IMG/VR virus record: IMGVR_UViG_3300017971_000276 | Coordinates: 1-64,000 of that record | Reading direction: 5' to 3' (one strand) | DNA length: 64,000 nucleotides | From: a virus | Shown here: positions 1-26,837 of the stretch, piece by piece | How the letters are laid out: every line of letters starts with the position of its first letter | Numbering within the stretch: the first letter of the stretch is position 1 | Translations under genes and position numbers: made by a program | The notes under the pieces: model-generated | Databases searched by the model: none | Seen by the model: the letters and a program-made list of their open reading frames with translations, nothing else | Told to the model about the DNA's origin: nothing

Positions 1-231
1 GGTGGCACCCTACCACCACTACTTAATACTAGGTCTACCAAAATATTTTTCTTTTCTACTTCTCTTATAGATTTTTGTTTTTCAAAATCTTTTCTCTAAA
101 AATATATATTTCTCAATTTATCCCCTATATAGATCTTGACAATCTATCCGAGCGTGGCTATCTATATCATTATAACTATGGACAAATTGTCCTTAAGCCA
201 AATTGGCAAACATCTAATAGGAGGTGCAGAG

Positions 232-642
232 ATGAGAAAATCTTATCTAATCAGAGACTTACCATTATTATTCGACACATTTTTTCTTAAATGGCCTGAA
301 GCGGCGAAACCACCGATGGATAATTTCCCTATCCTTGACAGCGATGCTTCAAATGGCGAACAATTAAAAGGATGGGAGATTCAATTAGCTCTTGCTGGCT
401 TTACAGAAAAGGATGTAAGGGTTTGGTATGAAGGACAGACTTTACATATTGGAGGAGATAATAGTTCTAACGAAAATATTGGTAGTAAATTCTCTTGTTC
501 TTTTCATCATACCTTAGCTATTTCTAAAGATTTAGATCTAAAGGAGTCTGAAGTTTCTTTAAAAGAAGGCATCCTTTCTATTAAGATCCCGATAAATAGT
601 TCAATAAGAAAAGAGAATCATTTATTTGGTTCTTGTAAATAG
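232..642 (+). CDS. Small heat-shock protein (Hsp20/alpha-crystallin family)
   Basis: Motifs 'WEIQLALAGFTEKDVRV' and 'VSLKEGILSIKIP' are typical of Hsp20/IbpA. Start moved to ATG 232, which follows AGGAGGT (219-225) and is in frame with track ORF 136..642. Confidence 0.85.
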   Translation: MRKSYLIRDLPLLFDTFFLKWPEAAKPPMDNFPILDSDASNGEQLKGWEIQLALAGFTEKDVRVWYEGQTLHIGGDNSSNENIGSKFSCSFHHTLAISKDLDLKESEVSLKEGILSIKIPINSSIRKENHLFGSCK

Positions 643-680
643 CTTTGTCTTCCGATCTATCTTTCCTTTCTTAATTCTTG

Positions 681-689
681 TGCTATACT
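681..689 (+). promoter_or_regulatory. Putative extended -10 promoter (TGCTATACT)
   Basis: TGnTATACT in the AT-rich gap upstream of ORF 744. No clear -35. Confidence 0.45.
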
Positions 690-743
690 TAATTTAAGCG
701 AAAACCTTTTTGGGGGAGGGCCAACAAAAGGGAGGAATATAAA

Positions 744-1073
744 TTGACTGATACGGATGATAAGATTGCTGTTGCCATTAAGAGATCTCAACCTGATTGG
801 GCGAAGTGGATTGGCTTACTTTTGACAGTACTCTCTCTTACTGTAGCTGCTGTTGTGTGGGCGAGCACAGAACATTCTGATATTCGATCCTGGACAGCAG
901 ATCAAGACTATGTTACAAAACAAGAGTTAGAAAAGTCTTTTGAGAGACAATACGTACCAAAAGAAGATTTTTCTAGAGTAGAACAGAGTATTATTGATCA
1001 AAAAGAGGATATAAAAGAAATCAAAGATAAGGTTGACAAAATCTTTGAAGTTATCCACAGAAGAAACAGGTGA
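744..1073 (+). CDS. Single-TM membrane protein with C-terminal coiled coil (holin-like, uncertain)
   Basis: Hydrophobic run WIGLLLTVLSLTVAAVVW, then a heptad-rich tail and basic C-terminus. TTG start after a GGGAGG RBS. Confidence 0.5.
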   Translation: MTDTDDKIAVAIKRSQPDWAKWIGLLLTVLSLTVAAVVWASTEHSDIRSWTADQDYVTKQELEKSFERQYVPKEDFSRVEQSIIDQKEDIKEIKDKVDKIFEVIHRRNR

Positions 1074-1076
1074 TCT

Positions 1077-1361
1077 ATGAATGATCCTCGTAACGATACC
1101 CTACTAAAGTTAGCTTCCCTTAGAGACTCCCTAATACAGTTTGCCAAGCCCGAAGTCCTTAAAAAAATTCTAGACCTTTGTGAAGCTCTTGGCACCGATA
1201 GAAACTCATTCGTTAAACAGTTTAAGTTCTGGGCAGAGAAGAATGGTGAAGATTGTCGCTACGCTGCGATGGCCAAACAATTCTTTTTACAGGATCAAGC
1301 AGAAAGTGTTGCCAAACAGATAAATTGGCTCTATCATAACTGGAGCAAATATTATGAATAA
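1077..1361 (+). CDS. Hypothetical protein
   Basis: 94-aa ORF packed in the operon. No motif recognised. Confidence 0.6.
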   Translation: MNDPRNDTLLKLASLRDSLIQFAKPEVLKKILDLCEALGTDRNSFVKQFKFWAEKNGEDCRYAAMAKQFFLQDQAESVAKQINWLYHNWSKYYE

Positions 1362-1371
1362 GGAGAACAAT

Positions 1372-1842
1372 ATGGAACTTAGAAACAAACTTTGTCGTCT
1401 TTTAGAAATCGCGCAAGAAAAACTATCTCCGCCGAAACAGGATCTCAGTTTTGAAAGGCTGATCTATACAATGGGCTCTGCCGATCCTCGTCCCTTCTCA
1501 AAGCTTACAAAAGGTTATAATTCTTTCTCAGGTTGTGACATCAAAATTATCATAGATGGTAAAACATCTGCTGCAACACAAAGCCTTTGTTGCGACGAAT
1601 ACATCGATGAAGAAGGCAAGAGACAAGTATCAGGTTCTGCTTCTTTTATTGTTTTTGATAAACCTTTTGATTATCTTGGCAAAACAGTAAGACTTATCGC
1701 CAATGGCGCAGACGAGTATGGGAATTTCGCTACATTCTTTGATGAGGAAGTTACATTCATTTCTAAAAAATATGAGTTATCTATTGAGAATGTTGTGGTT
1801 GAAGAACACTATACTTTCAAAATGAAAACCAAAGATGAATAA
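1372..1842 (+). CDS. Rearranged paralog of the tail tube protein
   Basis: Shares IYTMGSADPR, GYNSFSGxDIK, GKRxxxGSxxFIxFD, xAxEYG and SIxxxVxExxYT with the tube at 26163..26837. Start at ATG 1372 after AAGGAG (track start 1354). Confidence 0.75.
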   Translation: MELRNKLCRLLEIAQEKLSPPKQDLSFERLIYTMGSADPRPFSKLTKGYNSFSGCDIKIIIDGKTSAATQSLCCDEYIDEEGKRQVSGSASFIVFDKPFDYLGKTVRLIANGADEYGNFATFFDEEVTFISKKYELSIENVVVEEHYTFKMKTKDE

Positions 1843-1891
1843 GAGAGTAAACCTCGTCAAAAAGACAGTAATTGCTTATAAGGAGAACAAC

Positions 1892-2161
1892 ATGTTAAAA
1901 CCGACCACTGATTGGATCCTAACCAAGCCTGTAGCACAAAAAGAGAAAGTAACCGACTCTGGTATTGTCCTTGTTACTAAAGAAGAGGATTCTACTAAAC
2001 TTGTTGAGATTGTTTCTTTTGGCCCCGGCGCAAACAAAGACTCCTCCTTGAAGGCAGGAGATATCGTAATGGTTCCAACTCAAACAGGCTATAAAGTAGA
2101 ATTCGATGGTGAAGCTTTCGAGATGGCCAAAGAACAAAACTTTCTAGGAGTTATTGAATAA
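1892..2161 (+). CDS. groES: Co-chaperonin GroES/Cpn10
   Basis: MLKPTTDWIL...KVTDSGIVL...EIVSFGPG...LKAGDIV...GYKVEFDGE...EQNFLGVIE follows the GroES pattern end to end. ATG 1892 follows AAGGAG. Confidence 0.9.
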   Translation: MLKPTTDWILTKPVAQKEKVTDSGIVLVTKEEDSTKLVEIVSFGPGANKDSSLKAGDIVMVPTQTGYKVEFDGEAFEMAKEQNFLGVIE

Positions 2162-2550
2162 TGAATAGAAAAAGAATAGATCCCATGAAGTATCCTCTAA
2201 AAGAAGGAGAGTCATGGTGGATAGTACATCCTAATCAAAAGGGTGTAGAGTTCAAAGTTCCTTCAGGAGGAGTAACAGTCTGTACTTCAGACTTCCTAGA
2301 CTTCAAACAGAATACTGTTTATACAATCCTGGGTAATGATCCTCATAATGGTTGGATTACACTCCAGTCTTCTATTGAAGTTGTTGAGATGCCCTACTAT
2401 CTATTTGCAAGATACTTTGATGCAGAAGCCTTTGTTAGAGGTATTCTTAATGATCCTACAGAGCTTGAGGGAGCAGAACCGTTTAACTATAGACCGACCC
2501 TCCCAAAAAAGCCGAGCCAACAAATCGAGCTATTTGAGGATGTAAAATAA
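2161..2550 (+). CDS. Hypothetical protein
   Basis: 129-aa ORF with TAATG stop/start overlap at both ends. Confidence 0.65.
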   Translation: MNRKRIDPMKYPLKEGESWWIVHPNQKGVEFKVPSGGVTVCTSDFLDFKQNTVYTILGNDPHNGWITLQSSIEVVEMPYYLFARYFDAEAFVRGILNDPTELEGAEPFNYRPTLPKKPSQQIELFEDVK

Positions 2551-3104
2551 TGCTAGATATTATGAGATTTTTAAATCCTATTCAATTAAAATTTGTGACT
2601 TCTGAAGATACTTGTGTATCTCTTCTTGGGAAGCGTAGATCAGGAAAAACATATACAGCTTTATATACGGTACTTTATCAGATGCTTACTAAAGAAAATA
2701 TTTCTGTAGTTTATGCTGGGCCATACAAGACGCATGTCGATGTCTTCTTCTCTTCTCTCAAGTCTATATTATCTGAATTAGAAGTAGAAGTTGTCAAAGA
2801 TATTAAAGCTCCGTATTATGAGTTGCGTCTTAGTAATGGAAGTCGTATTCGTGGGTTCTCAACTGCGAGTGGAGTTGCTGCTAAAGGTCAAGATGCTGAT
2901 TTGATTCTGCTTGAAGAAGCACAAACGATAGATAAGTTATCTTTTATGGGAATCTTTCTTCCTATGTTGCATTCTAATCCAAAGATTAAGATTAGAACTA
3001 TTGGTACTTTTGATGAATCTACAATTGCAGACAATGCTCTGTTTTCTTCGTTATTTATTTACAATAACAAACAAATTGTTCTTCCTTTGGAAGGTGTGAG
3101 ATAA
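2550..3104 (+). CDS. Stand-alone terminase-ATPase-like protein (short TerL paralog, no nuclease domain)
   Basis: LNPIQ (Q motif), GKRRSGKT (Walker A), APYYELRLSNGSRIRGF, GQDADLILLEE (Walker B). Aligns with the N-terminal half of TerL 8081..10009. Confidence 0.8.
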   Translation: MLDIMRFLNPIQLKFVTSEDTCVSLLGKRRSGKTYTALYTVLYQMLTKENISVVYAGPYKTHVDVFFSSLKSILSELEVEVVKDIKAPYYELRLSNGSRIRGFSTASGVAAKGQDADLILLEEAQTIDKLSFMGIFLPMLHSNPKIKIRTIGTFDESTIADNALFSSLFIYNNKQIVLPLEGVR

Positions 3105-3105
3105 C

Positions 3106-3903
3106 ATGGGTGGATCTGGTTCAGGAAAGCCTAAAGGCGAATTACTTAGATTAGATGGCCATGAGCTTATTGATGGCAAGATTCAGAAGTCTAAATTCTT
3201 TGATTTTTTAGGGATGGATTTATCTGACTATAGTAATGTTACTATGACTCCAGAACAAGCTCTTAAATTTAAGAATACTGTTGTCAGGATGAAGTATGGA
3301 GTTGCTGCTGCGATCCCAATGATTTGTGGCGGACCAAAGTGTCCGAATAAACTTTGTGCATTTCATGATGGAGGTGGTTATCCTTTAGGAAAACAATGTC
3401 TCTATGAGGTTCGTATGATTCAAGCTCTGACACGAAGTTATATGGAAGACTTGGCAGTTGATCCAGATAGTCCTTCTGAAATGACTCTTATTAATAAATT
3501 AGTCGAATGTGATTTGATTGATTATCGCGCCAACCTTGGCCTATCAGGTGGCGTAGATGAAGAAGCAGCAACTCTTCTTTCTACGTCAGTTGTGGATAAT
3601 GGCAAAACGATGTCTGAGTCTATAGCAGTTCATCCTCTTCTAGATGCTAAAGATCGAGCTAATAGAACTCGTATGCAAATACAAGATGCTTTTGCTGCTA
3701 CACGTAGAGAGAAATATAAAAAAGCTGCAGCTCTTAAAAAGTCAGAAGATACAGATGCATCTACCTTCCTTGCCGAAATCAAGTCTGTATTTGAGGAAAC
3801 TCCTCAGCAAGCAGTCTCATCTCTTGATAAAATTAAAGAAGACGCTAAGAAAGTGTCTGAAGATCTTTCAGTCGTAGATGTAGATTGGAGTGCTGATGAA
3901 TAG
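3106..3903 (+). CDS. Cys-cluster phage protein (possible terminase small subunit)
   Basis: CxxxxCPxxxC...C cluster, helical and basic C-terminal half, HPLL motif, upstream of TerL. The TerS role is inferred from position only. Confidence 0.4.
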   Translation: MGGSGSGKPKGELLRLDGHELIDGKIQKSKFFDFLGMDLSDYSNVTMTPEQALKFKNTVVRMKYGVAAAIPMICGGPKCPNKLCAFHDGGGYPLGKQCLYEVRMIQALTRSYMEDLAVDPDSPSEMTLINKLVECDLIDYRANLGLSGGVDEEAATLLSTSVVDNGKTMSESIAVHPLLDAKDRANRTRMQIQDAFAATRREKYKKAAALKKSEDTDASTFLAEIKSVFEETPQQAVSSLDKIKEDAKKVSEDLSVVDVDWSADE

Positions 3904-6734
3904 TGCTAAATCTTTTTGGAATATCGTCTCTTGCTGGCTCTGGTTATCGAGGGCCAAATCCATGGCTTAATCCTACTTATAACCAAGCAGAAGATATTGA
4001 ACGCTATAAAATGATGCGTGCTTCTAAGCTTGGGTCTTCAGAAGCAGAACTATATAAATACTACACTCAGAAAGAAGAAGCTCCAGAGTGGCTTTCCGCA
4101 ACAGCTAGTGCAGGTAGTGCTCTTCACTTACTAGAAGAAGCAAAAGCAGTTAAAGAAGGCAGAGTGAATGCAGCAGAAGAATTTCTCTATGATCCGTCAA
4201 CAATGACAACTGGTCATATTGATATTACTTATCGTTCTGGTGCACCAGCTGATATTAAAACTGTTTCTGCTAAAAGATTTGCTCAAGTCCGGCAACAAGG
4301 TGCATTTAAGAAACATGTTCATCAGTTAAATTGGTATATGAACCAAAAGAACTCTGAAACTGGTTATCTTGAATATATTAATCGTGATGATACTTCTCAG
4401 AGACTTACTCTTGAAATTGGCTATGATCCTGCAATGTATGAGAGAGACATGGAAAAAGTCTCTAGAGTTCGTCGTCGAGTTGAAAGAGAAATTGAAGCTG
4501 GAATATTAAATGAGGATATGCTTCCTAAAACTGCATCTTTAGAAAGATTACAGGAAGCAGCAATTGAGGAAGCTGGTCAGGCTCTTGAAAATACTAAAAG
4601 GATTCCTTATTTAGAGAAGGTTTATCAAGAAGAGATGGACTATCTCAATTCGGTTTCTGCTAAACGAAATCTTCGTAGATCACAGAGAAGATATCAAGGA
4701 TCAAAAGACCAAGTAGCTCAAGGCGGTCAAAGGTGGAGTGGCAGAGATGACAACTATAATACAATTGAAGGTCTTCGTCACGGTGGTGCAGCAGAACACG
4801 TAAGAAAGTCATTAACTGCTTTTGGTTCTGGTTATCAGCGGAATGTCTCTTTGATTCATGTTGCAAAAGGTACTGATACTAGCGAAATTGAAAGAGAAGG
4901 TCTCCTTCCAAGTAAAACAGAGAAAGGTCTTGCTGGAGATGCAGTATATGCAACAACCAAAGAATGGTTCTCTCAAGCTACAGAAGAACAAAAATCTGGA
5001 TTAGGAATTCCTTATGGTTCGGCTTTTGAGTTTAAGGTAGATCCAAAAACTGTATCTGCTGGATGGTCAGAAGGTGGATTCTTTGGGTTGTTCCCGGAAT
5101 ACAAACAAGAAGCTCTTTCTTCTTTCTTGCAAAGAGAAGACAAGCCAGATATTTATGAAGTTACTGTCCCTTATAAAATTAATCCTAGTCAATTAAAGAA
5201 AATCTCTCCAAGAGAATCAAATGAGATTAGTACTGATGAATCTTCTTTCTCTGGTCTTGATGCCATTAAATATGGCGCAAGTGCAACAATGTTATATGCT
5301 GGGCTGACAGCAAAGAATATCCCTTTTAGGGACAGAATGGAAAAGATAGTTGGTAAGAAAGCAGCTCCGTTTGTAACAAAAGCGCCTGCTGCAATTTGGT
5401 TAAGTAATGAAATGCTTTCTCTTTCTACTGATCCTTCGTTAGAAAATGCTGCTCGTTTTGGATTGGGAGTAGCAGGGTGGGAATTAGGAATGAGACAAGG
5501 TACGAAATTAGGCGAGCGATTAGCAAAAGGGAAACATAAGGGTATACCAGGTGTTATTGGTCATATAATGGCTCCTATTGCGTCTAGTGCTTTGTCAAGT
5601 TTATTTAAGCCTTCTAATAGGCCAATTGAAGAGATTGAAGGTTTGCATCCTGGCTCAGAAGGCCTTGGAACTCAATCAGTTCGAGAAATTAGTGCTTTTG
5701 GTTCTGGGTTCGATGCTCTTAAGTCATATCTCCAAAATGAGACGGTAACAAAAGGCAAAAGAGCTTTCTTCTCTGGTCCACAGAAAGAATATGCTGGTTC
5801 TGAGTCTATTATCTCTAGTGCTTTTAGTGGAAGAGATGATGCATATAATACTATTGAAGGTTTACATCCAGGGTCAAATGGGATGGGAGCTTCTTCTATT
5901 AGAAGTCTTACTGATTTTGGTTCTGGTTGGGATCCTCTTAAAGCATTAGCCAGGAACATATTTAAAGATGTAGATAAAGACCAGGCTTTTAAGAAATTAG
6001 TTGGATCTTCAGAATTTCAATCTGCATTAGAACAAGCGACTCAGAAAGGTATTATTGGAGAAGGCATGTTTGGGTCTGTAAGGAAGATGGAGGGAGTTTT
6101 TAGAGGTAAGAAATTTACCTTCGCTAGAAAGACTGGAGAGATTGGGGAACAAGAAGTAGCTGCTATGCGAGCTGCAGAATCTACAGTTGCACCTTCCGTT
6201 TATTCTGCAAAGCCTGGTCAAATCGATATGGAGTTATTTTCTGGCAAGACATTAGGTGAATTAGCACCTAAAGATATTTCTGCACTTGAAGGAAAAGTTA
6301 CTTCTGCTTTTTCTAAAATTCATAGAGCGGGATACGAACATGCAGATCCTCATCTTGGAAATGTGTTTATTACTGATAAAGATCAAATTGGTATTATTGA
6401 CTTTGGTAATGCAAGAAATCTAGCAGAAGTAGGAGGGACTAATGCTGCTAGTGGAGATATTGATATTGTCTCTAGGCTTATTAAAGCTGCTTCAGAAGAG
6501 AAGTCTCAGTTGGCTGCTATTGATCCATTTGCTGCAGCTGATCCGTTTGCTGCTCAACAAGTAGGTTTGCAGGATGTAATGGCTCAACTTCCTGATCCAG
6601 CAATAGACAAAGCAAGAGCTAAAAGAATGAAGAAATTCCGACAAGTGAGTACAGATGCTGTTGGTATTGGCCATAGAGCAGCTTATAAAGCAGGTAGAAA
6701 ACATTCTGGGTTTAGATCAACAGAATCAATGTAG
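3903..6734 (+). CDS. Multi-domain polyvalent protein: PD-(D/E)xK nuclease + ART-like + membrane segment + Ser/Thr kinase, joined by repeated linkers
   Basis: Nuclease: GSALH...GHID...DIKT...HQLNWYM. ART-like: LIH...IEREGLLP...VYAT...YEV. Kinase: GEGMFGSV...K...E...HADPHLGN...DFG. Three linker repeats. Confidence 0.75.
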   Translation: MLNLFGISSLAGSGYRGPNPWLNPTYNQAEDIERYKMMRASKLGSSEAELYKYYTQKEEAPEWLSATASAGSALHLLEEAKAVKEGRVNAAEEFLYDPSTMTTGHIDITYRSGAPADIKTVSAKRFAQVRQQGAFKKHVHQLNWYMNQKNSETGYLEYINRDDTSQRLTLEIGYDPAMYERDMEKVSRVRRRVEREIEAGILNEDMLPKTASLERLQEAAIEEAGQALENTKRIPYLEKVYQEEMDYLNSVSAKRNLRRSQRRYQGSKDQVAQGGQRWSGRDDNYNTIEGLRHGGAAEHVRKSLTAFGSGYQRNVSLIHVAKGTDTSEIEREGLLPSKTEKGLAGDAVYATTKEWFSQATEEQKSGLGIPYGSAFEFKVDPKTVSAGWSEGGFFGLFPEYKQEALSSFLQREDKPDIYEVTVPYKINPSQLKKISPRESNEISTDESSFSGLDAIKYGASATMLYAGLTAKNIPFRDRMEKIVGKKAAPFVTKAPAAIWLSNEMLSLSTDPSLENAARFGLGVAGWELGMRQGTKLGERLAKGKHKGIPGVIGHIMAPIASSALSSLFKPSNRPIEEIEGLHPGSEGLGTQSVREISAFGSGFDALKSYLQNETVTKGKRAFFSGPQKEYAGSESIISSAFSGRDDAYNTIEGLHPGSNGMGASSIRSLTDFGSGWDPLKALARNIFKDVDKDQAFKKLVGSSEFQSALEQATQKGIIGEGMFGSVRKMEGVFRGKKFTFARKTGEIGEQEVAAMRAAESTVAPSVYSAKPGQIDMELFSGKTLGELAPKDISALEGKVTSAFSKIHRAGYEHADPHLGNVFITDKDQIGIIDFGNARNLAEVGGTNAASGDIDIVSRLIKAASEEKSQLAAIDPFAAADPFAAQQVGLQDVMAQLPDPAIDKARAKRMKKFRQVSTDAVGIGHRAAYKAGRKHSGFRSTESM
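4734..4835 (+). repeat. Linker repeat copy 1 (WSGRDDNYNTIEGL...FGSGY)
   Basis: Peptide and DNA similarity to 5823..5930, including an identical tttggttctggtt. Confidence 0.85.
5634..5711 (+). repeat. Linker repeat copy 2, partial (IEGLHPGS...FGSGF)
   Basis: IEGLHPGS is identical to copy 3 and the copy ends in FGSG. Confidence 0.8.
5823..5930 (+). repeat. Linker repeat copy 3 (FSGRDDAYNTIEGLHPGS...FGSGW)
   Basis: Full-length copy upstream of the kinase domain. Confidence 0.85.
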
Positions 6735-6785: not shown

Positions 6786-7262
6786 ATGTTTGGAAAATTA
6801 CTTGCAGGAACATTAGGCGGTGCTGCTATTGGTGGTCTTTATGGAGCTTCTGGAGGAGGAGGAATGGGTGGAGCTATCGGAGGGGCAGTAATGGGAGGAG
6901 CTTTTGGTGGAGCTGGATTTCGTGCTGCTCGTAGATTTGGTGCTGCCAGAGGGATGAGTATAGCAGGAGGAATGAGAAGAGGCTTAGAGTCTGGTATTCG
7001 AGGAGCTAGATGGGGCAGAGGCAAGCTTACTGGTGTCGCAGCAAGATCTCTTGTTGGAGGTGCTGGGTATGGTGGAGTTGCTGCTGGATATGGTGCAGAT
7101 CTTACAAGAGCAGCTGGGATGGGAATGGCTACTGCTCGTGGTGCTATTGGACGTAATGCTACTGCTGTAAATAAATATGGTGGTATGGCACTTGGCGCAA
7201 TAGGCACAGCTTCTGCTGCTCATATTGGATCTTCAATTATGGCTTCTAATAGAGGGTACTAA
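6786..7262 (+). CDS. Gly/Ala/Arg-rich glycine-zipper protein (putative internal virion/ejection protein)
   Basis: Repeated GGAxxG motifs and a good RBS. Function inferred. Confidence 0.55.
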   Translation: MFGKLLAGTLGGAAIGGLYGASGGGGMGGAIGGAVMGGAFGGAGFRAARRFGAARGMSIAGGMRRGLESGIRGARWGRGKLTGVAARSLVGGAGYGGVAAGYGADLTRAAGMGMATARGAIGRNATAVNKYGGMALGAIGTASAAHIGSSIMASNRGY

Positions 7263-8029
7263 TGCAATGGTTTGATGCTAATCCTCATGGACCGAATGCT
7301 GGTATTCGTGGGGACTTAATGTGGGAAATTCATGAGGGGGCCAGAGGGATGTTTCCCTCTTCCTTCGCTCGTGGAGGTACTTTTGCAACAACTGCTTTTG
7401 CACCAACAGCTTCAGAAGCGTTTAAGTCTCCTTGGAGAAAATCTATCAAACATGGAAGTCCTCAGCATATCGAGAATCTTAGAAGAATGCAGCGTGCCGA
7501 TCCTGGTAATGAAAGAATAACAAATCAGATAAAGAAAGCGGAGACCAAAAGTGCAAAGTTTGCATTAGGTGGAAGAGTCGCTAGATTCGGTTTAGGATTA
7601 GGAATGGTAGGAATACCAGCGTTTGCAACGCCTGGTGGCATTCAAGAGAAAGGGAAGGCTGTCGCGGCTAGTCTTGTCGGTCAAGTCGGCTGGGAATTAG
7701 GATCTAAAGCAGGGATGGGGATTGGAGCAGCATTAGGGAGTGTTATTCCTGGTCTTGGTACAGCAATTGGTGCTGGGGTAGGTTTCCTTGCTGGCGGCTT
7801 CCTAGGTGCTTATGGTGCTGAAGAAGCGGCATATGGGGTTATGGGAGTTTCAGACAGGATGGTAGAAAGAGAAAGATCTCGTCGTCGTCTTAATTGGAAA
7901 GGTGACACAACTGCTTTTATGACAAGAAGCGCGCATACAATGAGACAACAATCTCTACAAGCAATGAATAGAGGTCAAATGACTGCACGTTCAATGTTAG
8001 GTAGAGAAGGAGTAATGCTCCATCAATAA
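7262..8029 (+). CDS. Glycine-zipper membrane-type protein (putative internal virion/ejection protein)
   Basis: GAALGSVIPGLGTAIGAGVGFLAGG glycine zipper of the kind seen in tape-measure and pilot proteins. TAATG coupling. Confidence 0.6.
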   Translation: MQWFDANPHGPNAGIRGDLMWEIHEGARGMFPSSFARGGTFATTAFAPTASEAFKSPWRKSIKHGSPQHIENLRRMQRADPGNERITNQIKKAETKSAKFALGGRVARFGLGLGMVGIPAFATPGGIQEKGKAVAASLVGQVGWELGSKAGMGIGAALGSVIPGLGTAIGAGVGFLAGGFLGAYGAEEAAYGVMGVSDRMVERERSRRRLNWKGDTTAFMTRSAHTMRQQSLQAMNRGQMTARSMLGREGVMLHQ

Positions 8030-8080: not shown

Positions 8081-10009
8081 ATGAAAGATGAATTAGCAGA
8101 TCTTAGAGAAATGGACTTGCCATTTGATGTTGACGAAGTAATTCCTCAATGTCATGAATGTGTTCGTAGTCAAATCAAAAAATACAATAAACATGTTCTT
8201 GATGGCAAGGTTGTAGGGCGTAAATTCTTAGTTCCATGTACAGGGATTAAGAAAGAGCTTATTTCTCCGATGGAGAAGGCAACTAAAACAGATGATCAGT
8301 TAGGTATTCTTCGTGCAGTTAGAGACAAAGTAGAATTTGCTAAAATGTTCGCTCGTTTACCAGGGAATCTTCCTTGGGTTGCTAGATGGTATCAAGAGCA
8401 AGTGCTTAGATGTACTTCACGTCGTAAAGTTTTAAGAATTGGGAGACGAACTGGCAAAACAGATAGTGTATGTATGGAAATTCTGTTTAAGTTGTTTACA
8501 AGTTCAGATCGTAAAATTTTTGTAACTGGCCCACAGAAAGTGCATGTCGAAGAGATCTTTACTCGTGTTCGTGGTTTTATTGCTGCGAATCCGGTTCTTA
8601 AAGATTCTGTTGTTAGAGATGTAGCTGCTCCTTATTATGAAATCAAAGTTAGGAATGGTTCTCGTGTTCGTGGCTTTGCTGGAGGGGCTAAAGGCAAGAA
8701 GGAAGGCCTTGCAGGTCGTGGGCAAGATGCTGACGATATTTATTGCGAGGAAATGGATTATATTGATGAGACTGCTCTCCGTGGCGGTATTTTCCCTATT
8801 CTCCACACCTCTCCTAATACTTCTCTTTGTGGTTTCTCTACTCCCACAGGCTTTAAGACTCCTTATTATGCTTTGTGTGAAGAAAGTCCTCATTATAAAG
8901 AATTCCACTTCACATATAAAGTTCTACCTTGGTGGAAACAAGTTGAAGGAGAAAAGAGTTCTTTTACAGAAGAAGAATGGACACATGAGTATTTAGCAGA
9001 ATGGGGAACTTCTGAGTCTGGTGTTTATAAGCCAGCATATATAGATCGAGCTTTAGCTGATTACACATATGAAGGGATTAATAGAAATCCTTCGTGGAAA
9101 TATACAATTGGGACTGACTGGAACGAAAAACATGGTACTGAGATTGTGGTTCTAGGCTTTAATCCTTTCACAAATAGATTCCAAGTTGTAGATGCTCTTC
9201 ATGTAGAAAGCTCTGAGTTTACGCAGCTGACTGGTGTGTCTAAACTGCTTGAGATGAATCGCAAGTGGAGACCACATTTTATATATATTGATGCTGGGAA
9301 TGGCAGTACTAACTATGAGCTTTTAAGGAAAACTGCATATGAAAATATGCGTAGGGATGGAGACAGAGACACTGCTAACTTATTGAATATGCTGAAGAAA
9401 TATGACGCAGGAGCTTCTATTGAGATTCGGGATCCTGTTACTTCTCAAAAGAAGAAAAGCCCTGCTAAACCATTTATGGTAAATGCTTCTGTTCGTTTAT
9501 TTGAGCAAAATAAAATTAGGCTATCGGCTCATGATCATATTCTTGAAAAACAACTAAGAAGTTACATTATTGAAAGGATTACGCCCACAAAGACTCCTGT
9601 CTATGGGCTTGAAGATCCTAAAGCAAAAGATCATAAATTAGATGCTTTAAATTTAGCAATAGTTGCATTTCAGTTAGAATTTGATAGTCTACATACTAGG
9701 AATGTTAATACTCAAGTTGCATCAGTGCCAGACCCAAGGACTTTAAAGAATCAACAATCTCAAGATGAGAAAGAAAGATTTGCGACTCCACAAGAAAGAA
9801 GACTAGATGGTGGCTTTGAAAAAACACTTGTTGAAGAACAGCTATTTGCATCGACACCTGCTAGAATAGATAATGGTCTTGATGGAATTCGTACTAATAG
9901 ACCGGGATGGTCTACAGATGAAGAGGATTTACATATCCAAAGGTTTTTACAACGTAGGCGTGGTCGACAATCTATTAGAAGAAATCGGCCAACAAGATCA
10001 AATTTCTAG
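8081..10009 (+). CDS. terL: Terminase large subunit
   Basis: Walker A GRRTGKT, NGSRV, Walker B IYCEE, coupling motif FSTP, EYLAEW linker, RNase-H nuclease residues IGTDW, YIDAG and DHKLDA. Confidence 0.93.
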   Translation: MKDELADLREMDLPFDVDEVIPQCHECVRSQIKKYNKHVLDGKVVGRKFLVPCTGIKKELISPMEKATKTDDQLGILRAVRDKVEFAKMFARLPGNLPWVARWYQEQVLRCTSRRKVLRIGRRTGKTDSVCMEILFKLFTSSDRKIFVTGPQKVHVEEIFTRVRGFIAANPVLKDSVVRDVAAPYYEIKVRNGSRVRGFAGGAKGKKEGLAGRGQDADDIYCEEMDYIDETALRGGIFPILHTSPNTSLCGFSTPTGFKTPYYALCEESPHYKEFHFTYKVLPWWKQVEGEKSSFTEEEWTHEYLAEWGTSESGVYKPAYIDRALADYTYEGINRNPSWKYTIGTDWNEKHGTEIVVLGFNPFTNRFQVVDALHVESSEFTQLTGVSKLLEMNRKWRPHFIYIDAGNGSTNYELLRKTAYENMRRDGDRDTANLLNMLKKYDAGASIEIRDPVTSQKKKSPAKPFMVNASVRLFEQNKIRLSAHDHILEKQLRSYIIERITPTKTPVYGLEDPKAKDHKLDALNLAIVAFQLEFDSLHTRNVNTQVASVPDPRTLKNQQSQDEKERFATPQERRLDGGFEKTLVEEQLFASTPARIDNGLDGIRTNRPGWSTDEEDLHIQRFLQRRRGRQSIRRNRPTRSNF

Positions 10010-10017
10010 GAGGCACA

Positions 10018-10482
10018 ATGAGCCTTGAAGTGTATTTCAGAGATTCAAATGGTTTAATGTCTTTAGCTACTGTTGGCACAGACTTAGCCAATCCAGTTAC
10101 TACTACTCATGATGGGAAAGATGGAGATGAAATTGCAATTGTTCTTTATCTTAGGAATAATGATTCCTCTAGATGGTATTCGAATATTAAAATTACTCCT
10201 GTAGATCTTATAGATGCAAACCCTTATGGTGATGTTATATATAATGAAACTGGCTGGGGAGTAAAACTAAATAAAGGTGGATCAGAACCTACAGAAGCTG
10301 AATGGGATGATATTGATTGGGGATACCATATTGATATGGACAACATTGGGTCTGATGGAATAGGAGATACAAGTACTTATTATCCATTTTGGTACCTTGT
10401 TTCTTGTCCGCCAAATACGAATGCACAAAACAAAACTGACATTGTTCTTAGAGTAGAGTCAACAGAGAACACGGTGATTTAA
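10018..10482 (+). CDS. Putative virion structural protein (beta-rich)
   Basis: Beta-strand-type composition, GGAGG RBS, located in the head module. Confidence 0.5.
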   Translation: MSLEVYFRDSNGLMSLATVGTDLANPVTTTHDGKDGDEIAIVLYLRNNDSSRWYSNIKITPVDLIDANPYGDVIYNETGWGVKLNKGGSEPTEAEWDDIDWGYHIDMDNIGSDGIGDTSTYYPFWYLVSCPPNTNAQNKTDIVLRVESTENTVI

Positions 10483-10892
10483 TGTCCGATCTTAAAAAAC
10501 TCCTAAATCCTAATGATGCGGAAGCTTTAACAGAGCAAGCAGGAGTATCTTGGGTCCCTAAAGAACCAAGAGAGATTTTATTGCCTTATATGTCAGATGT
10601 TCCAAATCAAGAAGAGAAATCTGATCTAGATGCAAGAAGAGAGAAAGCAAAACAAGTAGTCGATGGATACACAGGAGTTATTGAAGACTGTAAGAGACTA
10701 GAGGCCGAAATTGAAGATCGCTGCAAAGATGCCACAGTTCCTCTTAATAGAGCACAACATCTTTCTGTGATAAAAGCATTGGGTCGTATCTTTGGTCTCG
10801 GCGAGCAAGAAGAAATTACATTTGAAATGTATAAAATATGTATTCGTGAATTAGCAAAACTTTCTAATGATACAGGAGCTCCATCCCAATGA
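10482..10892 (+). CDS. Hypothetical protein
   Basis: Coupled ORF between TerL and portal. Confidence 0.6.
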   Translation: MSDLKKLLNPNDAEALTEQAGVSWVPKEPREILLPYMSDVPNQEEKSDLDARREKAKQVVDGYTGVIEDCKRLEAEIEDRCKDATVPLNRAQHLSVIKALGRIFGLGEQEEITFEMYKICIRELAKLSNDTGAPSQ

Positions 10893-11281
10893 TGGCATTT
10901 GAACCAATTAATGAAGAAATTTATGACGAAGCAGCAACATATATTACATATGCTAAAATTTTTCCATATATTTTAGATCATTTTGTTAGTCGTAAAGATG
11001 CAAAGCAAATGATGCTTCCTAGTAATTTGCCCGTCCAGACTTCTATTCAAGTAATACCAGGACAAGCTGTTGCTACCGCTGGAGGCCCTACTGCCCAATC
11101 TGGTACTACAGTCTCCCCTGGCTCTGGAAGCGGACAGGGAACCGTACAGGCTAGTTATAACGGCTCTTATGCGAATGCCGAAAGTCAGGTGCTTAAACAA
11201 CAAGTCAAAGCGAAGAAAGAAGCTGGAGGAGTTGCTGTTGAAGGATTAACAGAGGCTGTCTCTACTGCTACAGGTGAATAA
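10889..11281 (+). CDS. Hypothetical protein (Gly/Thr-rich central hairpin)
   Basis: Coupled ORF containing VIPGQAVATAGGPTAQSGTT. Confidence 0.6.
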   Translation: MMAFEPINEEIYDEAATYITYAKIFPYILDHFVSRKDAKQMMLPSNLPVQTSIQVIPGQAVATAGGPTAQSGTTVSPGSGSGQGTVQASYNGSYANAESQVLKQQVKAKKEAGGVAVEGLTEAVSTATGE

Positions 11282-13242
11282 TGGGTTTTACAGACGACGA
11301 AAAAATTATTCGAACTAATGAGAAGAAGGTTATTAAATCGTCAGATGGCAAAACAATTAGCCTGTCTGTAAATCCAAATAATCCTTTTGCACAACATGAC
11401 TATGCTCTTGTTGTTAACACCTTTGAATTAGAAGCAGCGAATTGGGCTGAAGAAGACTATGCTTTAGCCTATCATTATAAAGATGTATATTCTACTAGAA
11501 ACTTTTCTGAGCGTGTCAGAGAACAAATGAACTATTATCCTGGCATGCATCAAGCATCTGCTGTTCCTGCTGAAGATCCTGCATATACAAAAGCTAAAGA
11601 GATGTCTTCTGAAAGAATGTCTTTTTGGAATAATTCAATGGACCATCCAGATGCTTTTATGAATGGGCTGCGTTCTAGACAACAAGATTTTGATTATAGG
11701 GAAATTTTTGGTTCAGATACGAGTGCTAAAACAAAAGCAGAACAAGTTGGCAAAGTACTTACAGAATGTATTCCTTGTTTTGATAGGCTTCTTGATTTAG
11801 ATGGTTTGCTTCCGGATGGAGATTTATTAGAAGTTCATTTATTGAATCTTAATTTGCGAACAGACTTGCTTGGCCAGATTCGCGATTTGTTTAAGAGCCC
11901 AGGAATGTATTTAGATGTTTGTGAGCTAATTAATCTTTTGGCCCGTCTATGCCCACAAGACCTGTTGGCTATCCTTTCCTTATTGACACAATATCTTGCA
12001 AAACTTAATCTGGATATTAAATTCAATATCGATTTTATTGTTAATCTTGTTGGTACAATTCTAAGTCCGTTTCTAGATGCTTTGTCTCAATGGCTAGATA
12101 AATTCATCCAAATGTTATTGGCACCTACACTTTGTGTTGTTGATCATATTAATGAAATTATTCTTACTGCACAAACAATGAAGATTCCATTGTCTCAAGC
12201 AACGGCAAGTCTTGATGCAGATATAGGGAATGCTGCTGGCGATCAAAATATGGCAGCGAATTTTACTGCAGGAGCAAATCCCGACGACCAATGGATTTCT
12301 GGAGAGCTAGAAAGATTCAATACTCCTGATGAACAAAAATATAATCCATCAAGACCTGAGTGGCCAGAGGAAGAGACGGAGCTTGCTGCCGAGGAGATGA
12401 AGGAATCGATAAATCCTAGTCTGTCTGAAGCAGAGAGAGAAGAAAGAAATAAGAGATGGGCAGAGCTTAGAGCCAAAGAGGCAAAGAAACGTAAAAAAGT
12501 TCCTCCTCCTTTAAGAGCTGGCAATCAAAGAGATGGTACAAGATGGAGTAAAGATGATATACCTCAATCAGAGAAGTGGAGCAAAGAATTCTCTGTTGGT
12601 AATGAGAACAATCCTCCTGAGAAACAAAACAAACCTCTTGAGGCTCGTGAATATTTTGATCCAGAACCACTTGTTAATTCTGTTGTTCAATTGAGAAATA
12701 TTATGCAAGGAGCAATTAGATATGTTCAAGATTGGTTCGATTATGCTATACAAATGATCTATGATCTTTTAGGCACAGATGCAGGTTGGATGATTAAGAA
12801 AACAGATACTTCTATTGTTAAGTCTAGAATCATTCAATTGATCTCTATTATCAAAGCTATTATTGAAGCTGTTTCTCGCAATGGTTTGAAATGTGGAGTT
12901 AATAGTAACTTTGATGATGGACAACTTAAATTCATTCTTGAAGATGGACTAAATAAATTCAGTGCTACGCAATTTAAAGTGCTTGATGATGGTACTATTA
13001 ATATTATTCCTCCAGGTTCAAAAGCTCCTCCTTCAGCAGAGCAAGTTGCTTCTGCAGTAGAGGATTTATCAGAGGCAGACAGGAATCAAACTGATACTCC
13101 AAAAGCCAAAGAAGTTAAGCAAAAATCTGTAGAATCAGGTATTATAGTCAAGAATTGTCTGCGTGATGTCACTGCAGAAGAATTAACTCAAGCCAGAGAA
13201 TGGATTGCCGATTACGAGAGGAGAACTGGCGGTAATGGCTAA
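11281..13242 (+). CDS. Large helical hypothetical virion protein
   Basis: 653 aa, Leu-rich amphipathic helices around a charged low-complexity insert. Directly precedes the portal. Confidence 0.55.
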   Translation: MGFTDDEKIIRTNEKKVIKSSDGKTISLSVNPNNPFAQHDYALVVNTFELEAANWAEEDYALAYHYKDVYSTRNFSERVREQMNYYPGMHQASAVPAEDPAYTKAKEMSSERMSFWNNSMDHPDAFMNGLRSRQQDFDYREIFGSDTSAKTKAEQVGKVLTECIPCFDRLLDLDGLLPDGDLLEVHLLNLNLRTDLLGQIRDLFKSPGMYLDVCELINLLARLCPQDLLAILSLLTQYLAKLNLDIKFNIDFIVNLVGTILSPFLDALSQWLDKFIQMLLAPTLCVVDHINEIILTAQTMKIPLSQATASLDADIGNAAGDQNMAANFTAGANPDDQWISGELERFNTPDEQKYNPSRPEWPEEETELAAEEMKESINPSLSEAEREERNKRWAELRAKEAKKRKKVPPPLRAGNQRDGTRWSKDDIPQSEKWSKEFSVGNENNPPEKQNKPLEAREYFDPEPLVNSVVQLRNIMQGAIRYVQDWFDYAIQMIYDLLGTDAGWMIKKTDTSIVKSRIIQLISIIKAIIEAVSRNGLKCGVNSNFDDGQLKFILEDGLNKFSATQFKVLDDGTINIIPPGSKAPPSAEQVASAVEDLSEADRNQTDTPKAKEVKQKSVESGIIVKNCLRDVTAEELTQAREWIADYERRTGGNG

Positions 13243-15418
13243 TACTGAAAAACACCAGGACCAGATAGCTCCAGCTCCAGAAAAGAATACAGGGTTTCGT
13301 ACGCCTGAGAAGAAAAGTATTATTCCAAAACATCTTCCTTCTCCAACAAAAGTATATACCTCTAATATTGGAAGAGGTCGCGCTCCTACACTTAGATGGG
13401 AGTTCCCTGAATGGGATCTTGTTGAAACTGGAAGAATCCTTGACACAGAATCATATGTGAGACGAGCGTTTCGTGTAAAGAAAAATCTGTTTCTTAAAGA
13501 AGGATATGAGTTTACTGGTTCTAATATTGCTAGAGTTCGATATATCAAGAGACGCTTACAACAGATGGAGCAAGCAACAGGGGGGCCTTTCCCTGTTCTT
13601 CTATCTGAAACAATTGCATCTTTAATTAGAACATCAAATGCATTTTGGGTAAAAGTTCGCAAACAAGTTTCTTCTGGAGGAGGACCAAGAGTCACCCCAG
13701 AAGGCAAGAGGCTAGAGCCTGTAGCTGGTTATTTCTTACTTCCTGCTGAAACAGTTCGTATTAAACGAGATGAATTTGGCAAAATCGTTAAATACCAACA
13801 AGATATTCATGGCAAAGTTGAAAAAGAATTTCGTCCTGAAGATGTTGTGCATTTTTATTTTGATAAAAGGCCAGGATATTCTGTGGGGACTCCCTCTTTA
13901 GTCCCAGTCAAAGATGATATTCGTGCTTTGCGTCGAATCGAAGAAAATGTTGAGTTGTTAATTTATCAACATCTTTTTCCTCTGTTCCATTATCGAGTTG
14001 GAACACAAGATGCTCCAGCAGCAGTATTTCCTGATGGCTCTACTGAAATTGATGTTGTAAAGATAGAAGCAGCGAGAATGCCTTCAGATGGTTGTTGGGT
14101 TACACCTGAAAGACATGAGATTACTCCTCTACAAGCCTCTAGTTCTCCTTTGGCAGTAGATAAAGTAATTGATCATTTTAAGCAAAGAATTTTTACTGGA
14201 CTTGGTGTCTCTTCTGTAGATATGGGCGAAGGGGGTACTGCTAATCGCAGCACTGCTCAAACTATGTCTCGAAATCTTATTGACGATACTAAAGCCGATC
14301 AAAAAGAGTTTGGAGCTTTATTCTATTCTTATATTATTCAAGAGCTTCTTTTAGAATCTACTTTCCCCTCTTCTACCCTTCTAGACGAGGAGAATAGAGT
14401 CTATCTTAAATTCAAAGAAATTGATTTAGAATCTCGTCAAGCTAAAGAGAATCATTATGTGGATATGTTTCTTAAGAATGCTATTACACATGATGAGATG
14501 CGACAAAGTATTGGTCTTGAGCCGTTCCAAGGGCAAGGCTGGCCGACAGGCACAAAGAAAACTCAAATGTTTACCAAGGGCGATGGAGACTGGGGCAATA
14601 CTAATTATGGTCTTGTTGAAAGAGATAAGATTATTCTTCAATCCTTAGATGAACCTGGAACAGATGCTTCTCAAGCAGAATCTCAATCAAGAACCAAGCA
14701 AGCTAATGCTCAAACAGCTGGTGGCAATGCAGTTGCTAATAAGAATGCTCCTGCCAATCAACATGGAGCTAGGTCTTCTGCTAAAATAAATAAAGATTCT
14801 TTAGATTTTATTTACAAACAGAGTCCTCCAGTAGAAAACATCTATACTGCTCTTAAAGAAGATATTGTTGATCAAGTACGAAGAACTGGTCTGGTTGTCT
14901 CTAAATTAGAACTAGCAATTAATATGTCATTCTCAGAGGCTCGTGATAGATTAGTTCGCCAAGCCAGTCAAGCATATAGAACTGGCCTCCGTGAAACAGG
15001 AAGAATGATTTGGGAAGTGCGTGTTGACAAAATTGATGCTAAGATTCAAGATCATGTTGAAAGATATGTAAATAGACTCCGTGATAATTTATTTGATGCA
15101 ATTAAAGCACATACTTTCAAAAGAAAAGCTCTTAAAATTGAGGATGCTATTTTTGTGGAAATAATTTTTAATGCACTTGAGCACAGGACTAGGATGATTG
15201 ATAAGAGTGAAGTTATGCGTGCATACAATTATGGTTTAGCTAGTGGGCATCGTTTGAATGGGTTTAATAAAATGCATTCTGTAAGAAACGGAAGCGATCC
15301 ATGTGACACTTGTGACAACCACTCTTTGAAATACGAATCTACGGATGCTATAATTTACGAAGACTTACCTCCATTGCATCCTAATTGCACATGTACTATG
15401 CAAAAGGTAGGCCAATAA
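13235..15418 (+). CDS. Portal protein fused to a C-terminal MuF/gpF-like head morphogenesis domain
   Basis: Portal-like NAFW, LLPAETVRI, FRPEDVVHF, GTPSL, LGVS..DMG, ITHDEMRQSIGLEP. C-terminal CDTC...PPLHPNCTC is the MuF signature. Start at ATG 13235. Confidence 0.85.
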   Translation: MANTEKHQDQIAPAPEKNTGFRTPEKKSIIPKHLPSPTKVYTSNIGRGRAPTLRWEFPEWDLVETGRILDTESYVRRAFRVKKNLFLKEGYEFTGSNIARVRYIKRRLQQMEQATGGPFPVLLSETIASLIRTSNAFWVKVRKQVSSGGGPRVTPEGKRLEPVAGYFLLPAETVRIKRDEFGKIVKYQQDIHGKVEKEFRPEDVVHFYFDKRPGYSVGTPSLVPVKDDIRALRRIEENVELLIYQHLFPLFHYRVGTQDAPAAVFPDGSTEIDVVKIEAARMPSDGCWVTPERHEITPLQASSSPLAVDKVIDHFKQRIFTGLGVSSVDMGEGGTANRSTAQTMSRNLIDDTKADQKEFGALFYSYIIQELLLESTFPSSTLLDEENRVYLKFKEIDLESRQAKENHYVDMFLKNAITHDEMRQSIGLEPFQGQGWPTGTKKTQMFTKGDGDWGNTNYGLVERDKIILQSLDEPGTDASQAESQSRTKQANAQTAGGNAVANKNAPANQHGARSSAKINKDSLDFIYKQSPPVENIYTALKEDIVDQVRRTGLVVSKLELAINMSFSEARDRLVRQASQAYRTGLRETGRMIWEVRVDKIDAKIQDHVERYVNRLRDNLFDAIKAHTFKRKALKIEDAIFVEIIFNALEHRTRMIDKSEVMRAYNYGLASGHRLNGFNKMHSVRNGSDPCDTCDNHSLKYESTDAIIYEDLPPLHPNCTCTMQKVGQ
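15326..15354 (+). promoter_or_regulatory. Sigma70-type promoter TTGAAA-17bp-(TG)TATAAT
   Basis: TTGAAA 15326-15331, TG 15346-47, TATAAT 15349-15354. Lies inside the portal 3' end, upstream of the protease/capsid genes. Confidence 0.65.
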
Positions 15419-15431
15419 TAGGAGTATAAGA

Positions 15432-17576: not shown

Positions 17577-17595
17577 ATAAGGGAGGTAACAAAAG

Positions 17596-19017: not shown

Positions 19018-19041
19018 TGCCGAAGAAGGAGGATATTAAAA

Positions 19042-20304: not shown

Positions 20305-20331
20305 TTCGTAGCGTCGTTATGACGTAGCATC

Positions 20332-20377
20332 GAAAGGGAGGAGGAGCGGTCGGTCTCCTTCTCCCTTTCTTCTTTCT
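20332..20377 (+). terminator. Rho-independent terminator after MCP
   Basis: Stem GAAAGGGAGGAGGAG (20332-46) pairs with CTCCTTCTCCCTTTC (20355-69), one G-U pair, followed by TTCTTTCT. Confidence 0.8.
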
Positions 20378-20394
20378 AACCAAGGAGTAGAGCT

Positions 20395-20928
20395 ATGAAG
20401 CTCGTTAAGATTAAGCTGAGTGAAAGTCCTTTCTGGTTTCTTGGGAAGGCTATAAAGCTCAATCGTTCAAAGCCATTTAGCGATCTTATTAATGTTGATT
20501 CTCTGTCTGATGAAGACAAAAAAATTATTGATAAGTCTATCTCTAGATGTGAGATTAAGCTTTTTGATTCAGAGGGGAATAGAATTCCTTCTTTGGAAGA
20601 GGCTGGCTATATTAGGGGAGAATTTTCTGTCAGTCTAGAAGATATTAAAGAAGATCAATCCGACACTGTTCCTGAAGTTTTTTCTGTTACTGTTGGTAAT
20701 GATGACGAAGACGAAGAAGATGAGATTCTAGAACCTACAGAAACAGACTATGAAAATGCAGAATTAATTCTGAGTAAGAATGGGAATACAGTAAAGAAAA
20801 TTATCAAAGAGACTTCTGACTCTGAAGAGGGTTTGTCCTTATTGCATGCATGCTTAACTATTGAAAAACAAAATAAGAATAGGATTGGGATTATTAATTC
20901 TATTGAACAAAGGATTATGGAGTTTTAA
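20395..20928 (+). CDS. Hypothetical protein
   Basis: AAGGAG RBS, acidic linker, C-terminal E..K..NRxxII helical motif often seen in genes following MCP. Confidence 0.6.
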   Translation: MKLVKIKLSESPFWFLGKAIKLNRSKPFSDLINVDSLSDEDKKIIDKSISRCEIKLFDSEGNRIPSLEEAGYIRGEFSVSLEDIKEDQSDTVPEVFSVTVGNDDEDEEDEILEPTETDYENAELILSKNGNTVKKIIKETSDSEEGLSLLHACLTIEKQNKNRIGIINSIEQRIMEF

Positions 20929-20929
20929 G

Positions 20930-21184: not shown

Positions 21185-21189
21185 TTTAG

Positions 21190-26141: not shown

Positions 26142-26162
26142 TTAAGGGAGGAATGATAGACA

Positions 26163-26837
26163 ATGGCACTACAATCGGCATTCACAAGAGGCTATAATAG
26201 CTTCTCAGGCGTGGACATTAAGGCTGTTATCGGTTCTAATGTAATCGGTAGCATCCAAGGTATTTCATACCAAGTGTCCCGTGAAAAAGCTCCTATTTAT
26301 ACAATGGGTAGCGCAGATCCACGAGCATTTGCTAGAGGCAAACGTGCAATTGCTGGTTCTTTGGTCTTCATTCAGTTTGATCATGAACCACTAATGTACG
26401 AACTAGCAAACCCTGATCCTAAAGAGGAGAGCAGAAGACTTTATTTCTTGTCTGATATTGATGACCTTCGTCCTGAATATCGAGCAGGAGAAAGAGTTGA
26501 AGTTGCGACAACAGGAGTAAGCCCAGTATCAGCAGAAAGCACAAATGTACCTGGTGCTAATATTGGCCAACAAGAGAGTAATATTACAACTGCAGGGTCT
26601 GATCAACAAAAGGCATTACCTTGGTACGCAGATCAGATTCCGCCATTTGATGTCGTTTTAGGCGCAGCAAATGAGTATGGCGCATTGTCTATTATGAAGA
26701 TTCTTGGTTGTGAGCTTATGAACTCTGGATATGGTGTCTCTATTGATGATATCGTTTCCGAACATAGCTATACATATATTGCTCATGGTCTATTGCCATG
26801 GGTAAGCCAAGGTGTTCATGAAGACATGTTAGGCTAA
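26163..26837 (+). CDS. Tail tube protein
   Basis: Follows the sheath. SFSGVDI, REKAPIYTMG, RGKR.IAGSL.F, DQIPPFD, ANEYG, SIDD...E..YTY. Confidence 0.85.
   Translation: MALQSAFTRGYNSFSGVDIKAVIGSNVIGSIQGISYQVSREKAPIYTMGSADPRAFARGKRAIAGSLVFIQFDHEPLMYELANPDPKEESRRLYFLSDIDDLRPEYRAGERVEVATTGVSPVSAESTNVPGANIGQQESNITTAGSDQQKALPWYADQIPPFDVVLGAANEYGALSIMKILGCELMNSGYGVSIDDIVSEHSYTYIAHGLLPWVSQGVHEDMLG

Follow-up and report, generated by a model that had tools for sequence, protein, structure and literature searches.

A tail-tube paralog encoded beside GroES in a marine jumbo phage carries the tube's hairpin-tip motif on its N-terminal arm

Tail tube proteins are well-studied phage building blocks, and their extended hairpin stacks one ring onto the next to form the tube. 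A gene near the start of a marine jumbo phage sequence raises the question of what a tube protein becomes when this hairpin is trimmed away and its tip is placed elsewhere in the chain. The sequence analyzed (the window) comprises 64,000 nucleotides, the first 64 kb of a 72.9-kb IMG/VR record that is estimated to be 38% complete, and carries all of its large genes on the + strand. The gene lies at 1372..1842 (+) and encodes a short, 156-residue protein with a tail-tube fold, P0001, delineated from the ORF list, the ribosome-binding site, BLASTP, AlphaFold, and Foldseek. We tentatively regard ORF 1372-1842, at a little less than an even chance, as a functional, diverged duplicate of the tail tube protein that has been cut down to the β-sandwich core. 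Because related phages have the same layout, P0001 is probably a tube mimic incapable of extending a tube.

The reference for this comparison is the canonical tail tube of the window, a 224-residue protein encoded at 26163..26837 (+; phrog_9206, E 2.5e-43) directly after the tail sheath (24255-26141, +; phrog_16991, E 7.5e-67). Upstream lie the genes of the terminase large subunit (8081-10009, +), the portal (13205-15418, +), and the major head protein (19042-20304, +; phrog_3922, E 4.5e-24). PHROGs labels phrog_9206 'major head protein', and several of the GenBank records of Bacillus phage 0305phi8-36, Acinetobacter phage ME3, and Moorella phage MTATph1 label the tube family 'major head protein' or 'major structural protein'. 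The position after the sheath, together with the tube fold, indicates that the phrog_9206 protein is the tail tube despite the label, and one cultured homolog, from Bacillus phage vB_BauM_KLEB27-3, is annotated as a tail tube protein. The tube shares 28-40% identity with its counterparts in the lineage of 0305phi8-36, MTATph1, and ME3, and the phage that carries the short paralog belongs among marine relatives of 0305phi8-36. Two further tube paralogs follow the tube (26910-27830 and 27830-28744, both +). The first has a probably helical insert of ∼75 residues between strand 1 and strand 2; the insert of this type of paralog reaches several hundred residues in related loci, one example being the 709-aa ORF of locus L009.

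The ORF of the short paralog spans 1354..1842 (+), and an alternative upstream ATG at 1354 would give a protein of 162 residues. The ATG at 1372 is the likely start: AAGGAG lies six bases ahead of it (1360-1365), and the database copy of P0001 begins there too. In BLASTP, the ORF gave two collinear matches to the tube at 26163-26837, pairing paralog residues 49-107 with tube residues 5-79 (E 9e-10) and paralog residues 104-155 with tube residues 161-205 (E 1e-4). The first match establishes significant similarity to the phrog_9206-type tube family; P0001 itself has no Pfam match and no PHROG match at E ≤ 0.01. A gap of 15 residues coincides with the hairpin tip of the tube. The strand-1 motif GYNSFSGCDIK (1513..1545, +), with which the canonical tube fold begins, is evident in the alignments and corresponds to strand 57-61 of the model. 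A short turn, DEYIDEEGK (1594..1620, +), stands in place of the extended hairpin tip, and in the model the strands on either side of it (69-78 and 84-94) make up a tight hairpin. The internal hairpin is ∼14 residues shorter than that of the tube, and the alignment lacks both the central insert and the DQIPPFD motif. The earlier note had described the gene as a tail-tube paralog with a short DEYIDEE turn replacing the loop and with the insert and DQIPPFD missing, a description with which the alignments, both BLASTP matches, AlphaFold, and Foldseek agree.

The P0001 chain begins with an N-terminal helix (residues 2-18; 1375..1425, +), assigned by DSSP with block pLDDT values of 90 and 88 and supported by the family alignment. 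The canonical tube N-terminus has no equivalent of this helix; a similar one is present in many family members, several of which have K-x-K-P at its end. No similarity of the N-terminal part ahead of the motif was detectable outside the family (phmmer, 2671-ORF set). An origin of the helix from the coiled-coil insert of paralog 26910, hinted at by an alignment, was dropped for lack of similarity.

Between the helix and strand 1 lies the decapeptide IYTMGSADPR (residues 31-40; 1462..1491, +), identical to the hairpin-tip motif that occupies its canonical place in the tube (residues 45-54; 26295..26324, +). A six-frame comparison of the window finds the peptide at these two places only. The tube gene has GYNSFSG from 26190 and the tip motif after it, from 26295, whereas in the paralog the tip motif (1462-1491) comes first and GYNSFSG starts at 1513. 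The canonical order is strand 1, strand 2, tip motif, strand 4; in P0001 the motif precedes strand 1. The parental arrangement A-B-C has become B-A-C (tip, strand 1, strand 4), which is not a cyclic rotation, and the rearrangement is therefore a non-circular segment transposition rather than a circular permutation. It is the best-conserved part of the tip, P-I-Y-x-x-G-S-x-D-P-R, that now sits on the N-terminal arm, immediately ahead of strand 1.

The two copies of the motif agree at 10/10 residues and only 22/30 nucleotides, and all eight nucleotide differences are synonymous, including a serine encoded by TCT in one copy and by AGC in the other. The identity has thus been held at the protein level, and the paralog's copy is neither recent nor the product of a chimeric assembly. 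Misassembly is also excluded directly: contigs from two sequencing runs of two studies reproduce positions 1000-2400 with 0 differences. The runs, one labeled sediment metagenome (2018) and the other seawater metagenome (2021), each contribute one contig of ∼9 kb over this interval, and either of the two runs, never both, may be the origin of the window sequence. Y32, G35, S36, and P39 are invariant among ten close family members (alignment A4), and the tip motif on the N-arm is kept under purifying selection. The reversed order, the full peptide identity with differing codons, and the correctness of the assembly, which the earlier note had wished to see checked, are all borne out.

A phmmer search of 1.84 billion representative proteins (E ≤ 1e-3) returned 49 proteins, from which two long repeat proteins, P0019 (of the Ig-like repeat type) and P0027 (no Pfam match), were set aside. 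The remaining 47 are short (104-231 aa), share 22-40% identity with P0001, and keep the core motifs; 23 of them match phrog_9206 (best E 7e-14), which P0001 itself does not match at E ≤ 0.001. The tip motif, as Y-x-x-G-S-x-x-P, is present in 27 of the 47 and is N-terminal of strand 1 in 27/27, the order in three of these having been read by eye from the sequence after the strand-1 regular expression failed; the canonical order occurs in 0/47. The permuted order for which the earlier note had proposed a homolog search recurs in these relatives, and the similarity goes beyond chance. As judged from sequence, the N-terminal arrangement of the motif is a conserved family trait and not a one-off. 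In a set of 2671 ORFs, phmmer (E ≤ 0.01) gave 515 pairwise hits in which N-terminal pieces of the relatives aligned with canonical-tube hairpins over 16-24 residues, indicating that the transposed segment is slightly longer than the decapeptide.

The remaining 20 relatives lack the motif by regular expression. Some of them (104-112 aa) may be truncated gene calls, and they also include the complete, syntenic gene of contigs G004 and G008, so the motif is dispensable in some lineages. The canonical tube of G004 still has PIYTMGTADPR although its early paralog lacks the motif. In a tree of the family, a branch with an SH-aLRT of 91, short of the star threshold of 95, had the 36 canonical tubes all to one side. 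Short proteins with and without the motif were interspersed in it, with 12 changes each and many long branches; three rows without a strand-1 regex match (P0037, P0045, and P0047) were left out. The topology suggests that the motif was lost repeatedly after a single ancient split, in a tree too weak to date or count events. No core column was robustly conserved in motif-bearing members only (lowest p 0.006 among 48 columns listed, uncorrected).

A viral search with a ten-sequence alignment (A4) as the query returned 74 viral loci. Among the profile-matching ORFs of these loci and the window, 50 have the canonical order and two are permuted (the window ORF and one in L007), while 61 contain the strand-1 motif only, nine the tip motif only, and 24 neither; L007 is the sole one of the 74 loci to hold a permuted gene. 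Degenerate DNA patterns for the junction of motif and strand 1, which cover one spacing and hence undercount, gave 0 matches in viral contigs and two metagenome contigs, both of the P0041 type. Among cultured phages (INPHARED, tblastn), nothing was found for P0001 or P0008, and P0004 retrieved the canonical tube of Moorella phage MTATph1 only. No family member was present in 185,579 genomes, one per prokaryotic species, where the sole locus was a canonical tube in a metagenome-assembled genome. The short-paralog family is known from metagenomes only.

The AlphaFold model of P0001, computed from the 47-sequence family alignment, has a pLDDT of 86.9 and a pTM of 0.63. Apart from the helix at residues 2-18, it features a well-defined seven-strand core (57-151) that contains the tight hairpin. 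The stretch from 20 to 55, with the motif, is less certain, with block means of 65, 78 (residues 31-40), and 58 (residues 41-50). The top ten Foldseek matches in the PDB are all tail, tube, or neck entries (probability 1.00, TM 0.31-0.53), at modest E-values of 1.5e-3 and weaker. The best of them (TM 0.40-0.53) are SPP1 (6yeg), phage 812 (8r5g and 8q01), and monocin (8qhs and 9j1j); further matches include phiCD508, PVC, and lambda gpV. In the BFVD, tubes of the same phage lineage rank first, among them an Acinetobacter phage ME3 entry named 'major structural protein', which the window's tube had matched as well. The ESM Atlas gave feature matches below 0.9 and structure neighbors that are phage tube families, which serve as leads only. 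P0001 is thus predicted to adopt the tail tube fold.

The monomer model of the window's tube is less well defined (pLDDT 66.9), falling below 50 at residues 34-40 and 43-59, as expected in such a model for a hairpin arm that is ordered only in the assembly. The relocated motif is predicted with higher pLDDT than the tube's own hairpin, which gives an indirect hint of docking in cis. A profile of 37 canonical tubes found 0 sequences in the PDB at E ≤ 1, and there is accordingly no solved homolog on which the hairpin socket could be mapped. When the tube (alignment A5) was predicted in complex with P0001 (alignment A3), the ipSAE values were 0.02 and 0.16 against a mark of 0.32, which speaks neither for nor against binding.

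Unlike the tube, which is encoded directly after the sheath within 24255-26837, the paralog gene starts at 1372, upstream of the terminase, in a block with the order Hsp20, membrane coiled-coil protein, 94-aa protein, paralog, GroES, and 129-aa protein. The Hsp20-like small heat-shock protein (136..642, +; phrog_432, E 9.8e-10) has a homolog in the block of G004. It is followed by a 109-aa membrane protein with a coiled coil (744-1073, +), which weakly matches an Rz-like spanin (phrog_7686, E 3.1e-5) and lipoprotein families and is conserved in the Hsp20/GroES blocks of G004 and L116, and by the ORF of the 94-aa protein (1077-1361). Downstream of the paralog is a GroES-like co-chaperonin (1835..2161, +; Pfam Cpn10, E 1.5e-11; phrog_3188, E 8.4e-13) with a likely ATG at 1892 after AAGGAG. 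The 129-aa gene (2161..2550, +) is a conserved downstream neighbor of the paralog and GroES, with homologs of 48-59% identity at the same relative position in L111, L112, and L116; its only Pfam match is a weak one to SH3_1 (E 0.026), below the cut-off. Promoter and terminator counts over 1-4000 matched those of shuffled sequence.

The association with GroES recurs in other phages. The paralog adjoins GroES in the window, G004/G008, G001, and L116/L117, on a side that varies: in G004 and G008, Hsp20, the same small genes, and GroES precede a motif-less 177-aa paralog, 26 kb upstream of the tube of these contigs; G001 has a 223-aa permuted paralog beside GroES; and in the metagenome contigs L116 and L117 GroES is followed by a 177-aa permuted paralog. 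A diverged 207-aa member in G002 adjoins a homolog of gene 3106 of the window, and the synteny extends over five contig types. The paralog gene keeps company with GroES and not with the tail module, an adjacency that amounts to guilt by association.

Further tube-like and neighboring genes were seen in and around these loci. In L116, two genes downstream of the permuted paralog, lie two tube-derived ORFs of canonical order: one at 2924-3472 (182 aa; 44.6% identity to the window's tube, DQIPPFD kept) and one at 3457-3897 (146 aa) that looks degenerate. The GroES block thus seems to gather tube duplicates. Short tube-fold paralogs are not limited to this block, as L115 has one of 137 residues (7053-7466; G012), tube-like and devoid of the tip motif, inside its tail module, between homologs of window genes 28760 and 29524. 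A 184-aa ORF of the window (2550-3104, +) shows similarity to the N-terminal ATPase region of the large terminase subunit (phrog_2, E 3.7e-9); the complete terminase of 642 residues (8081-10009, +) follows 5 kb downstream. A single 647-aa terminase in G001 matches both, and the match between the 1461-aa terminase ORF of L116 and the window's terminase is split into three, perhaps by inteins or other inserts. At 3903-6734 (+) is a 943-aa protein with an N-terminal Cas4-like nuclease match (phrog_1706, E 3.7e-8; phrog_1990), repeats of the form S-G-R-D-D-x-Y-N-T-I-E-G-L ... F-G-S-G, and a C-terminal kinase-like stretch (phrog_3297, E 1.2e-4); its homolog in G004 has 1446 residues.

Compared with known systems, P0001 belongs to the tube fold and is distantly related to the phrog_9206 family, from which it departs in segment order, in the extended hairpin and insert, and in gene position. 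With the 0305phi8-36-lineage tube (phrog_9206; ORF140; KLEB27-3) it shares the GYNSFSG-D-K strand 1, the F-I-V-F-D strand, the A-N-E-Y-G and S-I-D-D-I-V-x-E motifs, and the hairpin-tip decapeptide. It differs in carrying ahead of strand 1 the tip that the tube has between strands 2 and 3, in its ∼14-residue shorter hairpin and added N-terminal helix, in lacking the ∼80-residue central insert and DQIPPFD, and in being encoded beside GroES, 25 kb from the sheath and tube. The tubes of siphophages, YSD1_22, SPP1 gp17.1 (6yeg), and lambda gpV (7t2e), have the same β-sandwich fold as P0001 by Foldseek; they belong to non-contractile tails, show no sequence similarity to it, and do not have the tip moved to the N-arm. 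In the full-text articles searched, no tail tube protein was described whose hairpin had moved elsewhere in the chain.

A functional model of hairpin loss comes from YSD1, in which the hairpin provides 93% of the inter-ring contacts, and interface analysis predicts that subunits without it would form rings with no axial assembly (PMC7385642). The same report describes an N-arm that faces the head and a hairpin that faces the tail tip (PMC7385642). YSD1 has a non-contractile tail and a tube family other than that of P0001. By this analogy, the trimming of the extended β2-β3 hairpin to a tight turn and the loss of the large outer insert would leave P0001 without an outgoing hairpin, and since the hairpin supplies the inter-ring contacts in that other tube family, we infer that P0001 could not extend a tube. 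The arm with the motif would emerge from the face that would otherwise receive an incoming hairpin, and the tip motif on it may occupy a hairpin-tip socket, either its own, in a self-capping manner, or one on a tube ring or subunit. P0001 could then control assembly or act as a cap, and would be produced together with the phage chaperones. A non-polymerizing tube mimic acting in assembly control is the reading that we favor, with a probability that we put somewhat below one half.

Where the arm docks separates several versions of this picture. Across the family, 4 to 78 residues (mode 8) separate the motif from S-F-S-G; the linker has 4 residues in two members and 11 in P0001. Linkers of 4 to 11 residues require the motif of those members to stay near the point where strand 1 begins in the same chain. 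A short linker, down to 4 residues, would fit self-capping, as the earlier note had proposed, and would equally fit an arm reaching a neighboring subunit or the tube end. The head-proximal placement of the YSD1 N-arm (PMC7385642) would by analogy fit docking in cis.

The most serious alternative, which we consider unlikely but worth keeping in sight, casts P0001 as a structural virion protein (a tube terminator, an initiator, or an adaptor near the neck, for example) that forms a single hexameric ring whose motif plugs the sockets of the last tube ring in trans. The tube fold does recur in terminators, initiators, and hub domains. Among the Foldseek matches are entries for the neck-tail junction of phage 812 (8r5g) and the monocin cap (9j1j), whose chains may include accessory rings of contractile systems, short tube-fold proteins that end or start a tube and do not extend it; P0001 has no sequence relation to such rings. 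A conserved motif on a variable arm of 4-78 residues would suit reaching another subunit, and no PHROG-named terminator was found among the ten proteins of 10482-23555 scanned. However, the gene lies 25 kb from the tail module, and that module carries extra tube paralogs of its own (26910 and 27830) that could be the initiator or terminator. In addition, motif-less relatives fill the same syntenic slot.

Self-complemented pilins of the chaperone-usher pathway show that fusing a donated segment to the same chain yields a subunit that no longer polymerizes. These pilins are engineered and of an unrelated fold, whereas P0001 is natural and its docking in cis putative. A natural self-capped subunit, that is, a soluble mimic of the tube monomer made together with chaperones that would restrain assembly or decoy Avs16-like or DSR2-like sensors, is in our judgment improbable; if true, it would be the first phage-encoded decoy of the phage's own structural protein. 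Slightly less probable still is a dedicated anti-defense decoy, a soluble tube mimic that displays the hairpin epitope to block or absorb host sensors of the tail-tube hairpin. This idea draws on the sensor Avs16, which according to a 2026 report contacts the conserved tail-tube hairpin (PMC13581612), and on DSR2, which according to another report is activated by a tail tube protein (PMC11850899). The gene does sit among accessory genes outside the structural module, and the two additional tube-derived ORFs in the L116 block suggest an arms-race-like turnover. A displayed epitope could equally trigger the sensors, though, and the family is highly diverged and syntenic with chaperone genes, not with known anti-defense genes.

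That the gene is a functionless, decaying tube duplicate or an assembly chimera, as its lack of a Pfam or PHROG match and the degenerate-looking tube copies in the L116 block might suggest, is very improbable and largely refuted by its intact frame and good ribosome-binding site, the motif kept through eight synonymous changes, the core motifs kept in 47 diverged relatives (22-40% identity to P0001), the synteny over five contig types, and the identical sequence in runs of two studies.

P0001 belongs to a natural, conserved family in which the ring-stacking element has been excised and its tip re-attached to the N-terminal arm. The family is a ready-made test of how the hairpin and its socket control polymerization. 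For annotation, it bears on a parent family, phrog_9206, that is labeled 'major head protein' and on a short family that is without a Pfam or PHROG model of its own. More broadly, it points to an unrecognized accessory role of the tube fold outside the tail module, beside phage chaperone genes. If P0001 is a cap, an assembly governor, or an immune decoy, this would be a new function for the tube fold.
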